DNA from: a phage
DNA length: 47,149 bases
Reading direction: 5' to 3' (one strand)
Sequence record: PZ445406.1
The notes under the pieces: model-generated
What the model saw: only the letters and a program-made list of their open reading frames with translations
Databases searched by the model: none
What the model was told of the DNA's origin: nothing
Part shown: one piece after another, positions 4,333 to 43,563 of the stretch
How positions within the stretch are numbered: the stretch's first letter is position 1
Layout: the number at the start of each line of letters is the position of its first letter
Position numbers and translations under genes: made by a program

Positions 4333-4731
4333 ATGAATGATGCAATTTTGGCATTTATGCGATCGCTTGTACCTGCGCTCAAGGCAGTGGATGACGAATC
4401 AATTAATGTGTGGATCGATTTGGCACGTCTCTACGTATGTGAGGGTAAGTTTGGTAATGATGCAGATCGCGCTGTGGGCCTTTATGCACTACACCTGATG
4501 CTTGCTGATGGTGCATTTAAGGGTGAGAGTGAAGGGCTGGAAACATACAGTCGCAGAATGGCAAGTTACGCACTGAGCGGTGAATTCTCTATCACTTATG
4601 ATAACCAGTCGGCAATCCAGGGTGACTTATCATCTTCATCGTGGGGCCGTATGTATAAGGCACTCCTCCGCAAGAAAGGTGGAGGCTTTGGGTTGATTAC
4701 TTCCGCTCGTGGCGGTGGGTGCGGTTGCTGA
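4333..4731 (+). CDS. head-tail connector/adaptor protein (putative)
   Basis: ATG 4333 with GGAG SD (track start 4318 is TTG); synteny after capsid gene. Confidence 0.4.
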   Translation: MNDAILAFMRSLVPALKAVDDESINVWIDLARLYVCEGKFGNDADRAVGLYALHLMLADGAFKGESEGLETYSRRMASYALSGEFSITYDNQSAIQGDLSSSSWGRMYKALLRKKGGGFGLITSARGGGCGC

Positions 4732-5938: not shown

Positions 5939-6595
5939 ATGGCTCATTTATCAAACGGCACTCAGGTGTTCGTAGAAGGCTCTCGCGGAGCTGCAATTGA
6001 CGTAACTGCAATCTCTAACGCAGTTACCCCTGTTTTAACTGTATCTGACGCATCCGGATTGGTTGTTGGTGATTATCTGCTTTTCACCTCCTCAGCCTCC
6101 ACGCTTCTGGCTGATAAGCAAGTTCGCGTAACTGCAATCACTGGCACGTCAGTAACTGTTGAGGGTATTGATACCTCCAGCACCACCAAGTTCCCGGCTG
6201 GCTTAACTGGTGAAGTTGTTAAGATTACTTCCTGGTTCGAAGTTCCGTGCGTTCAGGACGTATCTACTGATGGCGGCGAACAGCAGTTCGTTAACTTCCA
6301 GTGTCTTTCTGATGACCGTGAACAGCAGATTCCGACTTACAAGTCTGCCGTAACAAACACCTTTACCTTTGCTCACGAGTACACTAACCCGGTTTACCCG
6401 GTTCTGCGTAACTATGATGAGTCTGGTCAGGTTGTTGCAATTCGTCTGTTCGTACCTCGCGCTCAGGAAATGCGCTTGCAGTCCGGAACCATCGCTTTCA
6501 ACGACACCCCTACCATTGGTGTTAACGAAATCGAGACGGTATCCATCGCAGTATCCATTCGTGGTCGCCTGTCATCTGTGGCAGCTGAAGTTTAA
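5939..6595 (+). CDS. major tail (tube) protein (putative)
   Basis: AAAGGA SD; 218 aa; followed by strong terminator; lies before chaperone and tape measure genes. Confidence 0.55.
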   Translation: MAHLSNGTQVFVEGSRGAAIDVTAISNAVTPVLTVSDASGLVVGDYLLFTSSASTLLADKQVRVTAITGTSVTVEGIDTSSTTKFPAGLTGEVVKITSWFEVPCVQDVSTDGGEQQFVNFQCLSDDREQQIPTYKSAVTNTFTFAHEYTNPVYPVLRNYDESGQVVAIRLFVPRAQEMRLQSGTIAFNDTPTIGVNEIETVSIAVSIRGRLSSVAAEV

Positions 6596-6627: not shown

Positions 6628-6671
6628 CATAGCACTTTTTGATAAAGCGTTAATTCAATCTTCCTGTATAG
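6628..6671 (+). promoter_or_regulatory. phage-type promoter module
   Basis: ATAGCAC-N4-TTGATA, 22-bp spacer, TATAGT; leader CATCTAAACGAAA follows. Confidence 0.5.
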
Positions 6672-6705
6672 TTAACTCATCTAAACGAAATGAGAGATTA
6701 AAGAA

Positions 6706-6954
6706 ATGAATAACGTTAAAAACATCATCAAACTTACTGCGGTTCTTGTTGCTTTTTATGCAGTGGTTCAGATTGTTAACCCAACTAGCGAGGCTGATGC
6801 CAGCAGCAAGGTAAATAAATATACTGTTGAATTTGCTAAGGCTGAGAGAGCATGTCAGGAGCTTGTAGGAGGAAAAGTTGACCAAATCATGAAATATGGC
6901 AAAGAGGTTTGTAAGGACTCGGCTGCTAAGATTGCAAAAGAAAACACTAAGTAA
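6706..6954 (+). CDS. small secreted protein (signal peptide, moron-like)
   Basis: N-terminal hydrophobic signal with ADA/SS cleavage-like site; own phage-type promoter after a terminator. Confidence 0.5.
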   Translation: MNNVKNIIKLTAVLVAFYAVVQIVNPTSEADASSKVNKYTVEFAKAERACQELVGGKVDQIMKYGKEVCKDSAAKIAKENTK

Positions 6955-18073: not shown

Positions 18074-18303
18074 TAATTCCACTCCTTAGAACCATAATCA
18101 CGAACGGACCCACTGGAGCCTTTAATTCCATCGTAGCGAATATCAATTTCACCAGCCGGAACAATTACGCCGCTTTTCCATTTAGCTACGCACACTCCGT
18201 TTGAGGATGTAGCGCACCAACCATCTGGGCGAGGACCAGATGAGCAGCCTACCATCATGATTGCTGCTGCGGAGATGATTACTGATTTGATGAAGTTATT
18301 CAT
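18073..18303 (-). CDS. small lipoprotein (candidate Cor/Llp-like superinfection exclusion protein)
   Basis: ATG 18303 with AAGGA SD; signal peptide ending in lipobox MVGC; about 76 aa; own phage-type promoter. Confidence 0.5.
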
Positions 18304-18342
18304 TTTTAAGTCCTTATTAAGTTTTCTCGTTTCGATGTGGTA

Positions 18343-18386
18343 ATGATAACTCATCCCTGCGGATTGTCTTTAGCAATTCGTGCTAT
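18343..18386 (-). promoter_or_regulatory. phage-type promoter module (drives lipoprotein gene)
   Basis: Minus strand ATAGCACGAATTGCTA, 22-bp spacer, TATCAT, leader CCACATCGAAACGAG. Confidence 0.5.
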
Positions 18387-19442: not shown

Positions 19443-19787
19443 GTGCCAGAAAACGTAACTAGTGGCAATGCATACATGGAATTACAAGAATTCACACGTA
19501 AACTTAATAAATTGATAGGCACAAACGATTGGATTCCAGCAAGCCACGCGGATATAGTTAACCCATCGAAAGCAAGCAACCAAATAGATACGAAAATGGG
19601 AAAGAAAATAGATAGATACTCAGCTCACACCGTAATACTACCCAGCTATGCTCCGGTTTTTATTGGTGTAACTTACGAAGTGGCTCTTAGATTATGCGAG
19701 TCATCATATGGTAAAGACTGGAAAAACAAATCAATTAGAATAGAGAAGACAACTAGAGAACATATCAAAATCATCGCGGGGGTATAA
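19443..19787 (+). CDS. hypothetical protein
   Basis: First ORF rightward of control region A; start ambiguous (GTG 19443 or ATG 19476). Confidence 0.4.
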   Translation: MPENVTSGNAYMELQEFTRKLNKLIGTNDWIPASHADIVNPSKASNQIDTKMGKKIDRYSAHTVILPSYAPVFIGVTYEVALRLCESSYGKDWKNKSIRIEKTTREHIKIIAGV

Positions 19788-22952: not shown

Positions 22953-25481
22953 TTAACCTATCTTAGTATAAGTCCATTGGTATGTTGCAGCGCCCTGTGC
23001 AGTTATCCCGACAGTTCTTCCGCTTACATCCATTGAAGTGAAAACGCCAGTTTTTGTAATTGTTATTGATGATGTTGTACCATCAAAAAGTACATCAGCA
23101 ATTACACTATAGTTAGCCCCGGCCCCAGTAACCCAGGTCGAAACCTTGTATAAACCTGCGTTGTTTGGCAACTCAAAAAGACCAGTTGAAACATTAGCCT
23201 GAACAGCCATAGCGCCCTTTCCGGTGTATACACCGTCAGTTTTAAGTCCTAATGATGAATACGTTTGCTTATAACCGCCAACGATCATGCCACCCATTGG
23301 TTCAGTAAACCAGTTCACATTACCCTGACTAACAACCGATATAGCAGGAGAGCCACCTTTAGCTGACTGGAACCTACCGCTCAAAACGTCAATTCTAGAT
23401 GTTGAATCCTGGGCGTAGATAGTTACAGGATACCCACCAGAACCAGTGTAAACCAAGCCGTTATCATTAATATCATCTTCAGATGAGTCAATGATTACAT
23501 GGGAAGTTCCAGACGCCTTGATGTACGAAACAACACCACCGGAACCAGCGCCTGTTGTTCTAACTTCATTCTTCCATGATGTTAGGCCTGAAATCCTGCC
23601 ATTTGAGTTATTAAACCTAATCAGGCAACAATCCTGAGAACCGTTCGTGTCAATAATGTTACCTTCGACGTCCATTCCCAGTATGTTTACGCTATGACTG
23701 TTAATAAAGTTAATTCCAGCACCACCGTAAGAACCAGATGTTGATGATATATTGCTGGCATCCATTGCGCAGTTAATCATCGTCACGCTCATCACTGAAC
23801 CAAATTCATAAGGTGAAATGCAATCTGATGCGTAACAAGTCTCAAGCAATATTGTCGTCCCAGTCGCCTTGATGAATCCCGTCCTGCAATTCCTGGCCCA
23901 AACATTCTGTAACTTAGTTTGGTATGTTCCAGTGGTATCCGTGTAACAGCCCCACGCTCCATGTACCGTGCAATCTTTGATGCATGAATTTTCCAGACCA
24001 GTTGCAGAACCAACATTAGAAACGAAGTTAAATGCTATCTTTTGATCATTCCCTGGTGCTGAGGTAGGCGTAGTGCCTGGGTTATAAAAAATGTAAAGTC
24101 CCTCAATAAACACTTGATACATTCTTATGTTTTGCGCATCACCCTGAACCAGGGCAAACAGGTTAATGTTCCCATCAACTGAGATAAATGCTTGCGCCCT
24201 GTTAATTTGGTCTGTCCCCTCCCCAATAATTCTTGTGCTGTTCCCAATCCTTACCGTCCTGTTAATAAACATAAAACCTTTTGGTATGTATACAGTTTTA
24301 CCGGTATTAACTGCCGCCTGAAGCGCAACTGAGTCAAGTGACTCATTAAGGTTTGATGCAAATGGATAAACAGCCCGTGCAGCCTCAATTGTAGAGAATT
24401 TAGATGACAGCGGAACTAAAGTGCCATTGTTTGTAGCACCAAAATCCATGACGTTAACAAAGTCACCAAGTTTACTTTCCTTGCTCCTTTCTACAGATGA
24501 GGTCAATGTCGATTTGTAATTCATCGAACTGAATCGTGATTGAGCCTCAGTCGTTGAATAAACATCAAGCAGACCCCTTACCCTTAAGGCGCTGGATCCA
24601 CCAGTAGCTCCATCTCCACCAGGAACGCTTAGAAGTTCCCTTACATAAAAATTCCTAGAACCAGTAGCTCCAGTAATGGTAATTTCCGCAACCCTAAAAA
24701 CGGCGTTTGAGGTTGTAGAAGGAGAAATTCTTACTACGTTACTTCCATTAACACCACGCGTCGCAAGAACATCAATACAAATAGTAGTGTTTGTCGCCGG
24801 GAACATTGAACTTAAGGCTGACGGAATGTTAACCATGTTTGCAATTTTGCACTGGTAGCTACCACCTGAATAAAATTGCATTGTCTGCCAGTCAAGGGAT
24901 GTAAGCAGTGGTGTTGTAGTACTTCCTATGCCGTGTTCTGCAAAGTAAGCCACTGCGGCCGTATTCCCAGCTGCATTTATTGCGTTAACGGTTCTGTTGT
25001 ATGAGTTCAGTGCATTATTGCTAGCACCAACGGCAGTTGATGCACTTTCTGCGGCAGAAATTTGACTAGCAAGTGCCTCTGCAGCTCCGGTAGTTGACTG
25101 AGTTGCTAACTGTTCAAATCGAGGCCAATCGAAGGTGTCTTGACCAATAAATTGCAGCAATCCTTCGATGGATGTCTCCTTTGACTGATAGTAACGCAGA
25201 GTCTCAGCAACATTCTGAGCTAAACCCGGAGCGGTAATCCCATCGTGCGCAAGAATCGCGTAACCAGTTCCGGCAGGAACAGTTTCAGAGTTAGGGTTAT
25301 AAACATTAATCTTAGTGTCGCTGACAATTTCCGAGATGGCGTAGATCTTTATCGGGTTAGTTTTGAAAATGATAGTAGCACCTACGCGAATCAGTGTAAG
25401 CGGTGCTTTCCATGTTGTACCAACACCAGTTACCTCTCCATTCGCGGCTAGTGACGCTGTTCCTAAGTCATAAATTGCCAT
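22953..25481 (-). CDS. tail fiber / tailspike protein
   Basis: About 840 aa, Thr/Ser/Gly/Asn-rich; probable ATG at 25481 (track start 25511 is GTG). Confidence 0.6.
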   Translation of the reverse strand: MAIYDLGTASLAANGEVTGVGTTWKAPLTLIRVGATIIFKTNPIKIYAISEIVSDTKINVYNPNSETVPAGTGYAILAHDGITAPGLAQNVAETLRYYQSKETSIEGLLQFIGQDTFDWPRFEQLATQSTTGAAEALASQISAAESASTAVGASNNALNSYNRTVNAINAAGNTAAVAYFAEHGIGSTTTPLLTSLDWQTMQFYSGGSYQCKIANMVNIPSALSSMFPATNTTICIDVLATRGVNGSNVVRISPSTTSNAVFRVAEITITGATGSRNFYVRELLSVPGGDGATGGSSALRVRGLLDVYSTTEAQSRFSSMNYKSTLTSSVERSKESKLGDFVNVMDFGATNNGTLVPLSSKFSTIEAARAVYPFASNLNESLDSVALQAAVNTGKTVYIPKGFMFINRTVRIGNSTRIIGEGTDQINRAQAFISVDGNINLFALVQGDAQNIRMYQVFIEGLYIFYNPGTTPTSAPGNDQKIAFNFVSNVGSATGLENSCIKDCTVHGAWGCYTDTTGTYQTKLQNVWARNCRTGFIKATGTTILLETCYASDCISPYEFGSVMSVTMINCAMDASNISSTSGSYGGAGINFINSHSVNILGMDVEGNIIDTNGSQDCCLIRFNNSNGRISGLTSWKNEVRTTGAGSGGVVSYIKASGTSHVIIDSSEDDINDNGLVYTGSGGYPVTIYAQDSTSRIDVLSGRFQSAKGGSPAISVVSQGNVNWFTEPMGGMIVGGYKQTYSSLGLKTDGVYTGKGAMAVQANVSTGLFELPNNAGLYKVSTWVTGAGANYSVIADVLFDGTTSSITITKTGVFTSMDVSGRTVGITAQGAATYQWTYTKIG

Positions 25482-25504: not shown

Positions 25505-25522
25505 ATAGCACGATTTGCTAAA
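25505..25522. promoter_or_regulatory. isolated copy of the TAGCAC/TGCTA palindrome (operator-like)
   Basis: ATAGCACGATTTGCTAAA between primase terminator and tail fiber start, with no matching -10 at the usual spacing. Confidence 0.35.
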
Positions 25523-26550: not shown

Positions 26551-27024
26551 TTACTCTTTAGCTTTTCGTGCTGCTTCGTTGGCGGCCTTGATCTTGCGCC
26601 ATGATCGACACTCTGGCTTGGTGGCTAATTCAGCCTCAGTAACAACGCGCAGCATGTGACGTTTTTTGCATCGTAGTGTAAGCGGTTTTCCGTTACCGTC
26701 GAATTGCAGGTCCGGTCGACAGAATGTAGCGCGAAAACCTTCCCCAGTTCGTTTGTAGTAGTTATGCGACAGTTGAGCGCCACGTGCAGAAATCATACCA
26801 CGCTTAAACCATTCTTCCACGGCCTGAGGAGTTACCTTTAGCTGCTTTGCGATATTCGCCTTTGTGCCGAAGAAATCAAGTAGCATCTCAAGCCGCGCAC
26901 GTAGCCCTGCCCTTACTTCATCTTTTAAAACGTAGTAGCCTGAAGGTCGTTTGCGCTTCTTTTTGTCTTCAGTGCGGACGGTTCCGTTATTCCCGTTAAT
27001 GGTTCGCTTGTCTACTGCATTCAT
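26551..27024 (-). CDS. HTH DNA-binding protein (candidate transcriptional regulator)
   Basis: Basic protein with Cro-like segment IAKQLKVTPQAVEEWFKRG; divergent from helicase promoter. Confidence 0.5.
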   Translation of the reverse strand: MNAVDKRTINGNNGTVRTEDKKKRKRPSGYYVLKDEVRAGLRARLEMLLDFFGTKANIAKQLKVTPQAVEEWFKRGMISARGAQLSHNYYKRTGEGFRATFCRPDLQFDGNGKPLTLRCKKRHMLRVVTEAELATKPECRSWRKIKAANEAARKAKE

Positions 27025-29121: not shown

Positions 29122-29541
29122 ATGAAAATTACAGATAAGGTTGATTACATTGAGTTTTACCCAGGCCCTGTTAATTCATGCCCTAAAGAGGATGACGAAC
29201 AAATCTTTTGCTCTGATTGGGTTAAGTATAACTATCCAGACATGGTGTTTTTCCACTGCGTGAATGAGGGTAAGAAAACAATTGGACAAGCAAGAAAAGA
29301 CCAGGCTAAGGGTTTATTGAAGGGCGTATCTGACTGCATGTTTCTGATACCTGAATCTATCCGAGGCAAATACCCTTTCGGAGCCATAGAGCTAAAGAGG
29401 GCAGGAAAAACACAGGCAAGCCCAGTCAGTGACGAACAGAAGTCCTTCCTGAAAAGCGTAAGAGAATCAGGCGGCTTCGCGGCTGTAGCCTATGGTCGCG
29501 AGGGTTTTCTGGCAGCATTCAAAGAAATGATTTCAAAATAG
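29122..29541 (+). CDS. VRR-NUC-like PD-(D/E)XK nuclease
   Basis: D...ELK signature (SDCMF...IELKRAGK); GGAGGA SD. Confidence 0.5.
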   Translation: MKITDKVDYIEFYPGPVNSCPKEDDEQIFCSDWVKYNYPDMVFFHCVNEGKKTIGQARKDQAKGLLKGVSDCMFLIPESIRGKYPFGAIELKRAGKTQASPVSDEQKSFLKSVRESGGFAAVAYGREGFLAAFKEMISK

Positions 29542-29581
29542 CACGAATTGCTAAAGGTATTTCGCAGGGATGCGATATAGT
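29538..29581 (+). promoter_or_regulatory. phage-type promoter module
   Basis: ATAGCACGAATTGCTA, 22-bp spacer, TATAGT, leader TTACCCCATCGAAACGAAA. Confidence 0.55.
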
Positions 29582-29619
29582 TACCCCATCGAAACGAAAC
29601 ACTAAAAGAGAGAAACAAA

Positions 29620-29823
29620 ATGGCCACTATCTACACCACTAAGAAATACATTTCACGTAAAACTGGTTACGAGTATAACCTGGTTCTTGATGACTCGCTC
29701 GGCATGCTTCTCGCTGACGCTGAAGATGCTGAATACTGCTTTGAAGTTAGCTCGACTTACAAAGATGATTTAGAAACTGTTAAAAACGTATTCGGCGAAA
29801 AATTTGATGAGGTGTCAGAATGA
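29620..29823 (+). CDS. hypothetical small protein, paralog A1
   Basis: C-terminus identical to next gene; own phage-type promoter. Confidence 0.55.
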   Translation: MATIYTTKKYISRKTGYEYNLVLDDSLGMLLADAEDAEYCFEVSSTYKDDLETVKNVFGEKFDEVSE

Positions 29824-29863: not shown

Positions 29864-29907
29864 ATAGCACGAATTGCTAAACTATGACGCATGGAAGCGT
29901 GTATTAT
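29864..29907 (+). promoter_or_regulatory. phage-type promoter module (duplicated copy)
   Basis: ATAGCACGAATTGCTA, 22-bp spacer, TATTAT. Confidence 0.55.
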
Positions 29908-29940
29908 CAACTCATCGAAAAGAAACTAGGAGAGAAAAAA

Positions 29941-30134
29941 TGAATACTATCTATACTGCTAAATTCTACGAATCACGCAAAACCGGTTACCAGTATGAAT
30001 TAGTAATTACAGATGACGGTTATTTTCTTGATGATGGTGAGGGGTACTCATTCGAAGTTAGCCCAACCTACAAGGATGATTTAGAGACTGTTAAAAACGT
30101 ATTCGGCGAAAAATTTGATGAGGTGTCAGAATGA
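29941..30134 (+). CDS. hypothetical small protein, paralog A2
   Basis: ATG 29941 after phage-type promoter; last 22 aa identical to A1. Confidence 0.55.
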
Positions 30135-32606: not shown

Positions 32607-32649
32607 TAGCACTTTTTGCCTAACGCATGCCGTAGAAATGCGGCATAAT
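32606..32649 (+). promoter_or_regulatory. phage-type promoter module
   Basis: ATAGCAC-tttt-TTGCCT, 22-bp spacer, CATAAT, leader TACCACATCGAAACGAAA. Confidence 0.5.
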
Positions 32650-32690
32650 TACCACATCGAAACGAAATGAACTAAACGAGGAAACACAAA

Positions 32691-32867
32691 ATGACTAAAA
32701 TGATTTATTGCACCAAAAACAACTCCAAGACGCTACCATTTACAGTTAACCAGCCGTACAATGCAGAGTACCAGGGTGATGGATATTACAAGATTTACGG
32801 CGACGATATGACGTGGATTTTAGCGCCGATTGAAGGTTCACTGGTTGAATTCATTATCGCTGACTAG
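32691..32867 (+). CDS. hypothetical 58-aa protein
   Basis: Phage-type promoter and leader upstream, terminator downstream; not in ORF track. Confidence 0.4.
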   Translation: MTKMIYCTKNNSKTLPFTVNQPYNAEYQGDGYYKIYGDDMTWILAPIEGSLVEFIIAD

Positions 32868-36001: not shown

Positions 36002-36075
36002 TACTTCTCTCCGTATTGTTTTTGAGAGGCCATTATATCAACGACCTCTTATAAAGCATTATCAATTTGTGCTAT

Positions 36076-36592: not shown

Positions 36593-36784
36593 CTATCTCT
36601 TTGTTGCGTAAGTAATGTTGCTTGCTGGAGTTGAGCATATGATATCAAGTGGTTTGCTATTGTGCTTAATTGTCTTGCTTTGTTCTCTAGCTGCCAAAAT
36701 TGAATCAATAATCCTTTGAATGATAACCTTATCTCGCTTGCTTGACAGCTTGTGGCGTCTCATTAAAGTTTTGATGTCTTGCAT
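36593..36784 (-). CDS. hypothetical basic protein
   Basis: Phage-type promoter and GGAGGGG SD upstream on minus strand. Confidence 0.5.
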   Translation of the reverse strand: MQDIKTLMRRHKLSSKRDKVIIQRIIDSILAAREQSKTIKHNSKPLDIICSTPASNITYATKR

Positions 36785-36814
36785 TTTTCGTACCCCTCCC
36801 GTTTCGATGAGATT

Positions 36815-38598: not shown

Positions 38599-38638
38599 AG
38601 CAATCACTGAAACGAAGTAAACCAAACGAGGTATTAAC

Positions 38639-39187
38639 ATGCAGAAAGTAACACTAGGTGAAGTTATCCGCGAGATGGTTCGTAACGCGATGGCGTCTGA
38701 TGGTGGTGAATTCAAAGTTCCGGTTAGCCAGATATTCAAGCTGGTTCGCGGGAAAGAATACCCTGAGATGCGGTATGATGAGGATACCAGTGAGATCCTA
38801 AACCTTGCAGATAGGGCGATGCCGGAACTAAAGAACTCATACATTTATAATACGGTTTCGAGAATGACCGAGCTTCGAGATGCAAACAAGCGAGCGCGCT
38901 ATAAGTTCATCTGGATTGATGAGGATGGCGAGCAGGTAAGCCCTGGTAGCTTCGATGGTGATGGCGCCGATAAATACCTGGTAATATACATTGAGGACGG
39001 CGCGCACTGGACTGGAAGTCGCGAGAAGAAAAAGCAGGAATCGGAGAGGGAGGCAGCAACCATTGAAAGGTTTAAATCTCGATTGCTCAAGCTGTCACCT
39101 AGCGTCGCTGGGCTGGAAGGTGATGAACTTAAGGGTGCTGTTGCAATGATTAATGCTTATCAGGAAATGATTAAGGAAACCAAATAA
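38639..39187 (+). CDS. hypothetical protein (first rightward early gene)
   Basis: sigma70-like promoter and conserved leader upstream. Confidence 0.5.
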   Translation: MQKVTLGEVIREMVRNAMASDGGEFKVPVSQIFKLVRGKEYPEMRYDEDTSEILNLADRAMPELKNSYIYNTVSRMTELRDANKRARYKFIWIDEDGEQVSPGSFDGDGADKYLVIYIEDGAHWTGSREKKKQESEREAATIERFKSRLLKLSPSVAGLEGDELKGAVAMINAYQEMIKETK

Positions 39188-41548: not shown

Positions 41549-41691
41549 TTTACATCCACACTTACTACACTGGCAAGTTCAATAGCGTTAAGCACGTTCG
41601 GGTTTATGAGGATTTTAAAGAAGCATTCAAGCAGCAGGAGGTTCTTGGTGGAGTTGTCCAGGAATGTGAAATTCTAGAAGAATACAAATAG
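41545..41691 (+). CDS. hypothetical 48-aa protein
   Basis: ATGA overlap; stop TAG is part of next promoter TAGCAC; not in ORF track. Confidence 0.35.
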   Translation: MIYIHTYYTGKFNSVKHVRVYEDFKEAFKQQEVLGGVVQECEILEEYK

Positions 41692-41731
41692 CACTAATTG
41701 TTAAAACAACATTGGGGTAATTTGATATAGT
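41688..41731 (+). promoter_or_regulatory. phage-type promoter module
   Basis: ATAGCAC-taat-TGTTAA, 22-bp spacer, TATAGT, leader TTACCCCATCGAAACGAA. Confidence 0.55.
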
Positions 41732-41761
41732 TACCCCATCGAAACGAATGAGGACAAACAG

Positions 41762-42007
41762 ATGGATAAAGACCCAATATTTGACATGATGATGAGTCAG
41801 TGTGAGGCAGTGGGTAAAGAAATGGCAATGCGGTTCCACCAATCAGAGCCCAAGCTACAGGCCAACCACTTCGACGGCTACGCAACATTCATCATTGCCC
41901 AGGCGTGCGGTATGCGTGAAGAGCCACAGGTTCACAGCATTCACTTGACCGAAGAACAGGCTAGAGAACTGGCTTACGAAATTCTAGAGCAACTTAATAA
42001 AATTTGA
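41762..42007 (+). CDS. hypothetical acidic protein
   Basis: Phage-type promoter, leader and GAGGA SD. Confidence 0.5.
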   Translation: MDKDPIFDMMMSQCEAVGKEMAMRFHQSEPKLQANHFDGYATFIIAQACGMREEPQVHSIHLTEEQARELAYEILEQLNKI

Positions 42008-42494: not shown

Positions 42495-42633
42495 ATACGT
42501 TATCGCATGTGAACGACTGGTCTTTGATATGAAGACTTTTCACTGGTTCATCATTAAGGATTTGATTAAGCCTTATAAGCAGGGTGTGACACCTGAGGCA
42601 TTTATCAAGAACTTCTATAGCACTAAAAGCTAA
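42481..42633 (+). CDS. hypothetical 50-aa protein
   Basis: GAGGTGG SD; 3' end overlaps next phage-type promoter. Confidence 0.35.
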   Translation: MSFTEYVIACERLVFDMKTFHWFIIKDLIKPYKQGVTPEAFIKNFYSTKS

Positions 42634-42660
42634 ACGCAGTCGCCAGGGATGGCATATAAT
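42617..42660 (+). promoter_or_regulatory. phage-type promoter module (variant)
   Basis: ATAGCAC-taaa-AGCTAA, 21-22 bp spacer, TATAAT, leader TACCCCATCAACACAACGAG. Confidence 0.45.
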
Positions 42661-42690
42661 TACCCCATCAACACAACGAGAGACTGAGAA

Positions 42691-42930
42691 ATGTTCGGAC
42701 TAAATGAAGCGATGTTCAATGCGGTAAAGCGCCAGGCTAAAAAGCTCAACGATAAGTATGAGTCACTAAGCAAGCTGGACCGCAAGAATGATAAGTTGGT
42801 TGCTGGTATCATAACTGAGATTTGGCAGCCTGTTTCCACAGTTATCAGTAGGGATCGATTTGTGTGGGTATCTGGTTATCTTAAGGGTCGCGTTGGTCAT
42901 GACGAGAATGGGAATAGTCTTTATGAGTGA
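42691..42930 (+). CDS. hypothetical protein
   Basis: Phage-type promoter and leader upstream. Confidence 0.5.
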   Translation: MFGLNEAMFNAVKRQAKKLNDKYESLSKLDRKNDKLVAGIITEIWQPVSTVISRDRFVWVSGYLKGRVGHDENGNSLYE

Positions 42931-43485: not shown

Positions 43486-43563
43486 GCTCTGCTAGCTCAA
43501 CAGGACAGCAGCAACGACCTTCTAAGTCGTAGGTTACTGGTTCGAATCCAGTGCGGAGCGCCA
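43486..43563 (+). tRNA. tRNA-Arg (anticodon UCU)
   Basis: Hand-folded cloverleaf: 7-bp acceptor with one GU, anticodon arm ACGAC/CTTCTAA/GTCGT with U33 and A37, T-arm with GGTTCGAATCC, encoded CCA. Confidence 0.7.

Follow-up and report, generated by a model that had tools for sequence, protein, structure and literature searches.

A recurrent leader motif in the T1-like phage JeanPiccard is probably the start site and initially transcribed sequence of PeSL-like promoter cassettes

The window, the whole stretch of 47,149 bp analysed here, covers the entire genome of Escherichia phage JeanPiccard (Bas02, MZ501080.1), a T1/Rtp-like siphovirus of the Braunvirinae within the Drexlerviridae. Relative to MZ501080.1 the window is rotated by 2,592 bp and differs at two bases (positions 4512 and 17803, both T in the window and C in MZ501080.1). 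An RNA polymerase gene is absent from the JeanPiccard genome, and T1-like phages are expected to depend on the RNA polymerase of the host (TLS and SU57 genome papers). A tRNA gene at 43486-43560 (Rfam, 55.5 bits) is annotated in MZ501080.1 as tRNA-Arg (AGA).

The sequence under study, TTACCCCATCGAAACGAAA at 29581-29599, lies in the intergenic region upstream of the ORF at 29620-29823. This region comprises the following elements, where DR denotes the upstream direct repeat of the cassette and negative and positive numbers refer to the predicted transcription start:

29539-29555, plus strand: DR, TAGCACGAATTGCTAAA, at about -49 to -33; its TAG is the stop codon of the ORF at 29122-29541, and the consensus is as for TLS (PMC11447400)
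29556-29575, plus strand: variable spacer of 20 nt with a small palindrome, TCGCAgggaTGCGA
29576-29581, plus strand: -10 hexamer, TATAGT
29582-29587, plus strand: C-rich discriminator, TACCCC, at -6 to -1
29587-29598, plus strand: motif CATCGAAACGAA at -1 to +11; predicted +1 at the A at 29588, start codon at 29620, leader of 32 nt

The ORF at 29620-29823 and its neighbour at 29940-30134 are small paralogues, 72% identical, and each has a cassette of its own, which suggests a cassette-linked duplication. At the same place Rtp carries one cassette/ORF copy instead of two.

The preliminary description of this DNA had singled out 29581-29599 as a leader motif recurring behind most promoters, and the recurrence itself was borne out. 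Across the whole genome CATCGAAACGAA has three exact matches (29587, 32655 and 41737), all on the plus strand. Allowing up to two mismatches there are 15 matches compared to 4.66 +/- 2.07 expected, a number reached in 0 of 100 shuffles. Nine of these lie directly 3' of a -10-like hexamer (6678, 18326 on the minus strand, 19564, 29587, 29913, 32655, 36798 on the minus strand, 38605 and 41737), while the remaining six are intragenic and correspond to the chance level. All seven places named in the earlier description proved correct; 'most promoters' was generous, since the motif is found at -1 to +11 with up to two mismatches in only 7 of 19 promoter-like cassettes, the others carrying looser A/C-rich variants such as ACACCAAACGAG and ATCAACACAACGAG. 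Besides the copy at 29587, the copies and one looser variant are:

32655-32666, plus strand: exact copy; DR 32607-32623, -10 CATAAT at 32644-32649, +1 at 32656, start codon at 32691
41737-41748, plus strand: exact copy; DR 41689-41705, -10 TATAGT at 41726-41731, +1 at 41738, start codon at 41762
6678-6689, plus strand: CATCTAAACGAA, one mismatch; DR 6630-6646, -10 at 6667-6672, +1 at 6679, start codon at 6706
29913-29924, plus strand: CATCGAAAAGAA, one mismatch; DR 29865-29881, -10 at 29902-29907, +1 at 29914, start codon at 29940
18326-18337, minus strand: CATCGAAACGAG, one mismatch; DR 18385-18369, -10 TATCAT at 18348-18343, +1 at 18336, start codon at 18303
36798-36809, minus strand: CATCGAAACGGG, two mismatches; DR 36857-36841, -10 at 36820-36815, +1 at 36808, start codon at 36784
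38605-38616, plus strand: CACTGAAACGAA, two mismatches; promoter without DR, TTGACC upstream; start codon at 38639
19564-19575, plus strand: CATCGAAAGCAA, two mismatches; 3' of TATAGTTAACC, with only a degenerate upstream repeat
42666-42677, plus strand: looser variant CATCAACACAAC, 3' of TATAATTACCCC; DR 42618-42634, +1 at 42667, start codon at 42691

All promoter-linked copies are located 6 nt 3' of the -10. The distance from the -10 is thus fixed, whereas that from the motif to the start codon varies between 24 and 35 nt in the motif-bearing copies.

The motif is one block of a composite cassette of about 100 bp that is used about 20 times in JeanPiccard. More specifically, the cassette consists of a 21-nt repeat (aaATAGCACnnnTTGnTAAA) at -51 to -32, a 20-nt spacer, a -10 of the form (TGn)TATAGT or TATAAT, a 6-nt C-rich discriminator with the consensus TACCCC, A(+1)TCGAAACGA, a Shine-Dalgarno sequence at about +14 and a predicted start codon 22-40 nt from +1. 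The upstream pattern TAGCACnnnTTGnTAAA has 20 matches in the JeanPiccard genome compared to 1.03 expected. There are 19 promoter-like copies (for example at 6630, 10640, 29539, 32607 and 41689 on the plus strand and at 18385, 36857 and 38008 on the minus strand), in which repeat and -10 are separated by exactly 20 nt in 16 cases and by 19 or 21 nt in the remaining three; in many copies the repeat overlaps the stop codon of the gene before it. This rigid distance to the -10 makes the 21-nt repeat a putative upstream promoter element at -51 to -32. A lone repeat without a -10 is found at 25506-25522 on the plus strand; read on the minus strand, it is flanked on one side by a terminator-like hairpin that follows the primase gene and on the other by the lateral tail fibre gene, which starts with the ATG at 25481. 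T1 and TLS also have repeat-plus-terminator arrangements near the regulator and primase genes. At two other places, the annotated starts at 19443 (GTG) and 39731 (ATG) lie upstream of the predicted transcription starts at 19565 and 39761, and in-frame ATGs behind the promoters, at about 19596 and 39785, look better.

Rtp, T1 and TLS, representing three subfamilies, carry the JeanPiccard-type composite cassette. The JeanPiccard repeat is the same, in the same orientation to the genes (co-oriented), as the 21-nt intergenic repeat aaATAGCACnnnTTGnTAAAA reported about 76 nt upstream of start codons in TLS, whose function was listed as an open question (PMC11447400). The TLS distance corresponds to a repeat starting at -51 together with a leader of about 26 nt. 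That paper covers the repeat alone, and the fixed 20-nt spacing to the -10, the C-rich discriminator and the start-site motif are undescribed there. No -35 is present at 16-18 bp in the cassettes, the TTGCTA of the repeat being 22 bp from the -10. A classical -35/-10 scan of the JeanPiccard genome returned 29 sites compared to 29.7 expected and missed the cassettes; in TLS, standard prediction gave only three sigma-70 promoters (2024 paper, PMC11447400).

To describe the cassette beyond one genome, we assembled 147 non-redundant cassettes from the JeanPiccard, Rtp, T1 and TLS genomes and from IMG/VR contigs, retrieved by the repeat alone and therefore unbiased for the sequence 3' of it. The motif is present in 28 of them at up to two mismatches and in 40 at up to three, compared to none at up to three in the control register +25 to +36. 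The position profile shows the repeat at -51 to -32, the -10 hexamer, C at -4, -3 and -1 (C-1 in 93 of the 147), A+1 in 102, and the consensus T C G A A A C G A A from +2 to +11 at 0.2-0.4 bit per position, falling to zero past about +20. String counts peak in the same register (CATC at -1, 39 cassettes; ATCGA at +1, 23; AACGA at +6, 24), Shine-Dalgarno-like strings peak at +13 to +15 (SD at +13 to +16) and the commonest predicted start codon lies about 26 nt after +1. An extended -10 is frequent family-wide (G-14 in 103/147, T-15 in 68/147), but an in-register TGn is present in only 8 of 18 JeanPiccard copies.

The cassettes also contain hairpins. Folding of the region from -32 to +12 gave a mean z of -2.1 over the 147 cassettes, with 51% of copies below -2, and two forms can be distinguished: hairpins within the spacer, some then followed by T-runs and terminator-like, and hairpins bracketing the -10. 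An example of the former is the 36798 copy on the minus strand, whose spacer has GCCCttagGGGCTTTT, terminator-like in look. The bracketing form occurs in about one fifth of cassettes, with 6-11 bp, the TGnTAT of the -10 in the loop and the discriminator as 3' arm; at least six consecutive pairs are formed in 24 of 119 copies in this register, compared to 1-7 in shifted registers. Bracketing hairpins include:

JeanPiccard 41697-41737, in which GGGGTA..TACCCC brackets the -10 of the 41737 copy
JeanPiccard 36049-36026, minus strand
Rtp 43849, minus strand
T1 3536
TLS 1930 and 4062

The bracketing arms covary between copies (GGGGTA/TACCCC, AAGGCC/GGCCTT, GCGTG/CACGC) and include a compensatory change, GAGGTC/GGCCTC in JeanPiccard versus GCGGTC/GGCCGC in Rtp. 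Several examples have G.T pairs on the sense strand, as in GAGGTC/GGCCTC at 36074 (minus strand) and in the T.G pair of AAGGCCATT/AGTGGCCTT in T1. Having the -10 in a hairpin loop and the discriminator as an arm could couple termination of upstream transcripts with re-initiation in an undescribed way.

This anatomy resembles that of the promoter-early stem-loop (PeSL) cassettes of T4-type phages, in which very strong promoters are combined with stem-loops that terminate transcription (Arbiol et al. 2010, PMC2839356). Both have a strong promoter for the host RNAP, a stem-loop of variable sequence, with G.T pairs, that either brackets the -10 (G_n-loop-C_n) or lies between it and the upstream element, and, at the 3' end, a Shine-Dalgarno sequence with ATG before small ORFans. 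The PeSLs of phage JSE even have an identical TACCCC/ATCGAAACGAAAC. The T1-like cassettes differ in that the 21-nt repeat at -51 to -32 takes the place of a -35 hexamer 17 bp from the -10, and in that the -10 is extended (TGn) in about half of the copies; furthermore, JeanPiccard is a siphovirus, whereas PeSLs have been described only in T4-like myoviruses. By its anatomy the T1-like cassette matches what would be expected of a PeSL-like promoter-terminator element.

If the -10 occupies -12 to -7 and the discriminator the next 6 nt, the canonical +1 is the A of CATCG, which has a pyrimidine before it, and only the first C of the motif lies upstream of the start. A literature search for start-site mapping or a transcriptome of any T1-like/Drexlerviridae phage returned nothing usable. 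The nearest analogy is found in the experimentally defined host-polymerase promoters of T7, where the annotation of NC_001604 gives A1 as GATACT-TACAGCC/ATCGAGAGGG with +1 on CC/ATCGAG, and A3 as TACGAT-GTACCAC/ATGAAACGACAG with +1 on CAC/ATGAAACGA. T7 A3 aligns with JeanPiccard 32650-32665, TACCACAT(C)GAAACGA, with a single 1-nt gap. The T7 promoters differ from the cassettes in having classical -35/-10 elements, 7-nt discriminators and long leaders, and lack both the upstream repeat and an identical 12-mer. Because the first T7 gene lies 175-430 nt downstream of A1/A3, the resemblance at the start cannot concern a ribosome-binding site. From the -10 geometry and this analogy we infer that +1 in T1-like phages is probably the A of CATCG and that the motif is probably transcribed, so that its earlier placement in transcribed sequence is likely to be right.

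The same block, a -10 followed by TACyCC and ATCGAAACGAAAC, is also found in phi80-type pL promoters, in the PeSL cassettes of RB49-like phages and in an RB43-like Klebsiella phage. For exact matches of the 14-mer CCCATCGAAACGAA in IMG/VR, a -10-like hexamer ends exactly 6 nt 5' of the A in 66 of the first 97 unique contexts listed, compared to 0-5 at neighbouring offsets; these contexts comprise T1-like repeat cassettes, pL of the phi80/HK639/HK225 type, the JSE PeSL, and short-leader promoters on other contigs. The phi80 pL, with annotated -35 and -10, reads TTGACC-17-TTTAAT-TACTCC-ATCGAAACGAAACATCGAC, with ATCGAAACGAAAC as the block, and continues into a long leader with nutL. HK639 pL has the same block, a leader with a putL-like RNA, and its next annotated gene about 185 nt downstream. 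From -12 to +14, TTTAAT-TACTCC-ATCGAAACGAAACA of the phi80-, HK639- and HK225-type pL is nearly identical to TATAGT-TACCCC-ATCGAAACGAAACA of JeanPiccard, although these lambdoid promoters differ in being repressor-controlled, with a -35 box, CI operators and a long untranslated leader carrying nutL or a putL-like antiterminator RNA. The JSE (RB49-like) PeSL reads TTGACA-17-TAAGAT-ACCCC-ATCGAAACGAAAC. The RB43-like Klebsiella phage phi1_146002 (178 kb) has a full T1-type cassette with repeat, spacer hairpin, -10 and motif (positions 560-650 of the locus), which precedes one of the phage's own conserved genes. When eight promoters from four phage groups are aligned, the sole invariant block is CATCGAAA.GAA. 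In 185,579 bacterial genomes the exact extended 20-mer has 14 matches: seven in pL-type promoter contexts of Enterobacterales, four of unclear nature, and three in cassettes of T1-like or T4-like phages that probably contaminate otherwise unrelated assemblies.

Between the motif and nutL/putL, phi80/HK639-type prophages have a conserved stretch of about 50 nt (ACATCGACAGCTGAGCGAAGTTAGCCAGCGGCGG or a second variant) that is common to phages with quite different operators (loci 6278-6570; 308-375; 307-375). This stretch has no Rfam family, and an Rfam scan of five prophage loci with the phi80-type leader returned nothing. A resemblance to rrnB P1 (13/19 identical with the phi80 initially transcribed sequence, 10/19 with that of JeanPiccard) is suggestive of A/C-rich strong starts and was set aside as too weak.

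The distribution of the repeat also bears on its possible reader. The Rtp genome paper reportedly proposed Rtp52 as a binder of the upstream repeat and described 10 inverted repeats for it. The corresponding JeanPiccard gene is:

26551-27024, minus strand: putative transcriptional regulator, homologue of Rtp52 / T1 gp23, with a weak Cro-like HTH

By BLAST, T4-type phages of the RB16-like and Slopekvirus-like groups have 3-5 copies of the repeat per genome. Homologues of the T1-type regulator were detected by tblastn only in Drexlerviridae and, weakly, in one Alteromonas phage, and none in the repeat-bearing T4-type phages. The occurrence of the repeat in phages without a regulator homologue weakens the idea of the regulator as its universal binder, and the repeat may instead be read by host factors.

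The preliminary description had gone one step further and read the motif as an RNA-level signal, such as a processing site, a ribosome standby site or a regulator-binding site. This part found no support: the motif is locked to the -10, unstructured, without Rfam match, absent away from promoters, and its block is shared across phage families. An Rfam scan of the whole genome returned only the tRNA-Arg. The leaders fold with an MFE of 0 to -2.5 kcal/mol (z of at least 0.3; mean z of +0.24 over 147 leaders), no better than shuffles, and in JeanPiccard the full motif does not occur above chance before promoter-less genes or inside operons. Since transcripts of other phage families begin with this block but continue into unrelated RNA, a phage-specific site for processing or for a regulator is unlikely. 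The motif is not a new class of regulatory RNA.

A number of more specific candidates were considered and rejected. An RNA hairpin TCG-AAA-CGA within the motif is broken in several copies and carries no folding energy. A translational element linked to the ribosome-binding site is at odds with the variable distance of 24-35 nt and with the lack of the full motif before promoter-less genes. The sigma-70-dependent promoter-proximal pause element requires, on the non-template strand within the initially transcribed region, a -10-like hexamer with A at position 2 and T at position 6, and AACGAA/AACGAG does not have this T. The consensus for NAD-capping has a purine at -1 and does not fit C-1/T+2. 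By inspection, a likeness to sigma-32 promoters (CCCCATnT) lacks TTGAAA at 13-15 bp, and a likeness of the repeat to sigma-54 promoters (TGGCAC-N5-TTGC) has a spacing 2 nt short and AG in place of GG.

Taken together, we favour, with somewhat better than even confidence, the explanation that CATCGAAACGAA is the start site (C-1/A+1) and initially transcribed sequence (ITS, +1 to +11) of strong host sigma-70 RNAP promoters carried on PeSL-like cassettes. The presence of the same block 3' of the -10 in unrelated coliphage promoters read by the host polymerase means that it most likely serves transcription initiation. The cassette comprises the repeat, a spacer that in most cases contains a hairpin able to stop upstream transcripts, a -10 (often with TGn), the C-rich discriminator, ATCGAAACGA, a Shine-Dalgarno sequence and the start codon. 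Within it, the single A after the pyrimidine run (CCCC) would concentrate initiation at one position, started with ATP; the A-rich, T-poor and purine-rich first dozen bases, avoiding YG around +6, would then favour productive escape over abortive cycling or pausing; and the A-rich, G/U-poor 5' end would keep the short leader (22-40 nt) unstructured for ribosome loading. The near-identity of copies would be kept by selection together with exchange of whole cassettes, as for the PeSL of T4-type phages.

The composition of the ITS is in line with what is known of such regions: it is 48% A and 14% T, and YG steps at +5, +6 and +7 are present in only 4, 4 and 2 of the 147 cassettes. The ITS can change promoter strength more than 10-fold, productive yield is correlated with how many purines it contains, and a YG close to +6 slows escape or promotes initial pausing (PMC5961368). 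In strong promoters, the region between +1 and about +20 influences pausing, escape and abortive cycling (Kammerer et al. 1986 as cited in PMC5961368; T5 N25, PMC12464699). That literature reports no obvious consensus motif, whereas here a specific 12-13-mer recurs across phage families. The CG steps at +3/+4 and +8/+9 of the motif are of a kind tied to slower escape (PMC5961368), and it is thus not a textbook 'ideal' ITS.

Conservation up to about +13 exceeds what start-site selection alone explains, which counts against the start-site reading and in favour of a function of the RNA 5' end. In such a scenario the A-rich unstructured AUCGAAACGAA would act as a ribosome/S1 standby for short leaders or slow 5'-end-dependent decay (RppH/RNase E entry). 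The short leaders (22-40 nt; family mode about 26) place +1 to +11 at about -25 to -15 from the start codon, within reach of the ribosome, they are less structured than shuffles, and AACGAG/AACGAA is also found beside the Shine-Dalgarno sequence of some genes (31141, 36429 on the minus strand, 40437). The motif abuts the Shine-Dalgarno sequence in the commonest architecture, and a translational role is therefore hard to separate by sequence alone. Yet the register follows the -10 and not the start codon, the motif is missing before promoter-less genes, and the phi80/HK639 pL leaders with the same block show no nearby start codon; T7 A1/A3, whose starts are similar but not identical to the motif, have their first gene 175-430 nt downstream, the Rfam search was empty and no specific RNA partner is known. 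We therefore consider a dedicated RNA function rather unlikely, while an A-rich unstructured 5' end may be of general benefit to ribosome loading, translation or stability. A bolder version, distinctly unlikely in our estimate, takes the 26-nt TATAGT-TACCCC-ATCGAAACGAAAC as a horizontally mobile core promoter plus 5'-end module of at least four unrelated enterobacterial phage groups, whose RNA 5' end AUCGAAACGAAAC would be directed at the host on top of its promoter activity; such an end may protect the triphosphate from RppH/RNase E or may recruit a host factor.

The identity of the copies could also be a by-product of duplication, gene conversion and cassette exchange, with only the -10 and a purine start under selection and no function for the specific sequence. 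In line with this, the paralogues at 29620-29823 and 29940-30134 each lie behind their own cassette, the 25-mer TATAGTTACCCCATCGAAACGAAAC is 100% identical in many Klebsiella T1-like phages, cassettes are present in unrelated phage families, and recombination through PeSLs has been documented (PMC2839356; Comeau et al. 2014, PMC4122927). The family-wide information content is low, so that much of the exact identity within JeanPiccard may reflect copying between cassettes and not selection on each base. Two observations make this account, taken by itself, quite improbable: the copies keep the blocks on either side but differ completely in the 20-nt spacer, which points to selection on blocks and not to wholesale copying, and the block is joined in the same 6-nt register to three different upstream halves (DR, TTGACA -35 and operator-laden pL). 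Very improbable, finally, is a DNA operator, in which a phage protein such as the Cro-like regulator at 26551-27024 would bind the dyad TCGaaaCGA at +2 to +10 and repress or time the promoters. TCG/CGA does form an inverted repeat at a site overlapping the start, a frequent place of repressor action, but its arms of 3 bp are too short for specificity, the dyad is broken in the functional-looking copies CATCTAAACGAA, CATCGAAAAGAA and CACTGAAACGAA, and the block is common to phi80-, RB49- and RB43-type phages, in which tblastn detected no regulator homologue.

Reading repeat, spacer, -10 and start-site motif as one cassette, with the motif as start site and initially transcribed sequence, turns them into a testable promoter map for JeanPiccard and its relatives that predicts about 20 starts, and links the cassettes of these siphoviruses to the PeSL elements of T4-type phages. 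The reuse of the block in phi80-type phages and the likeness to T7 A1/A3 suggest an initiation module that is favoured by, or exchanged for use with, the enterobacterial RNA polymerase. This module could serve genome annotation and provide a compact strong promoter part.
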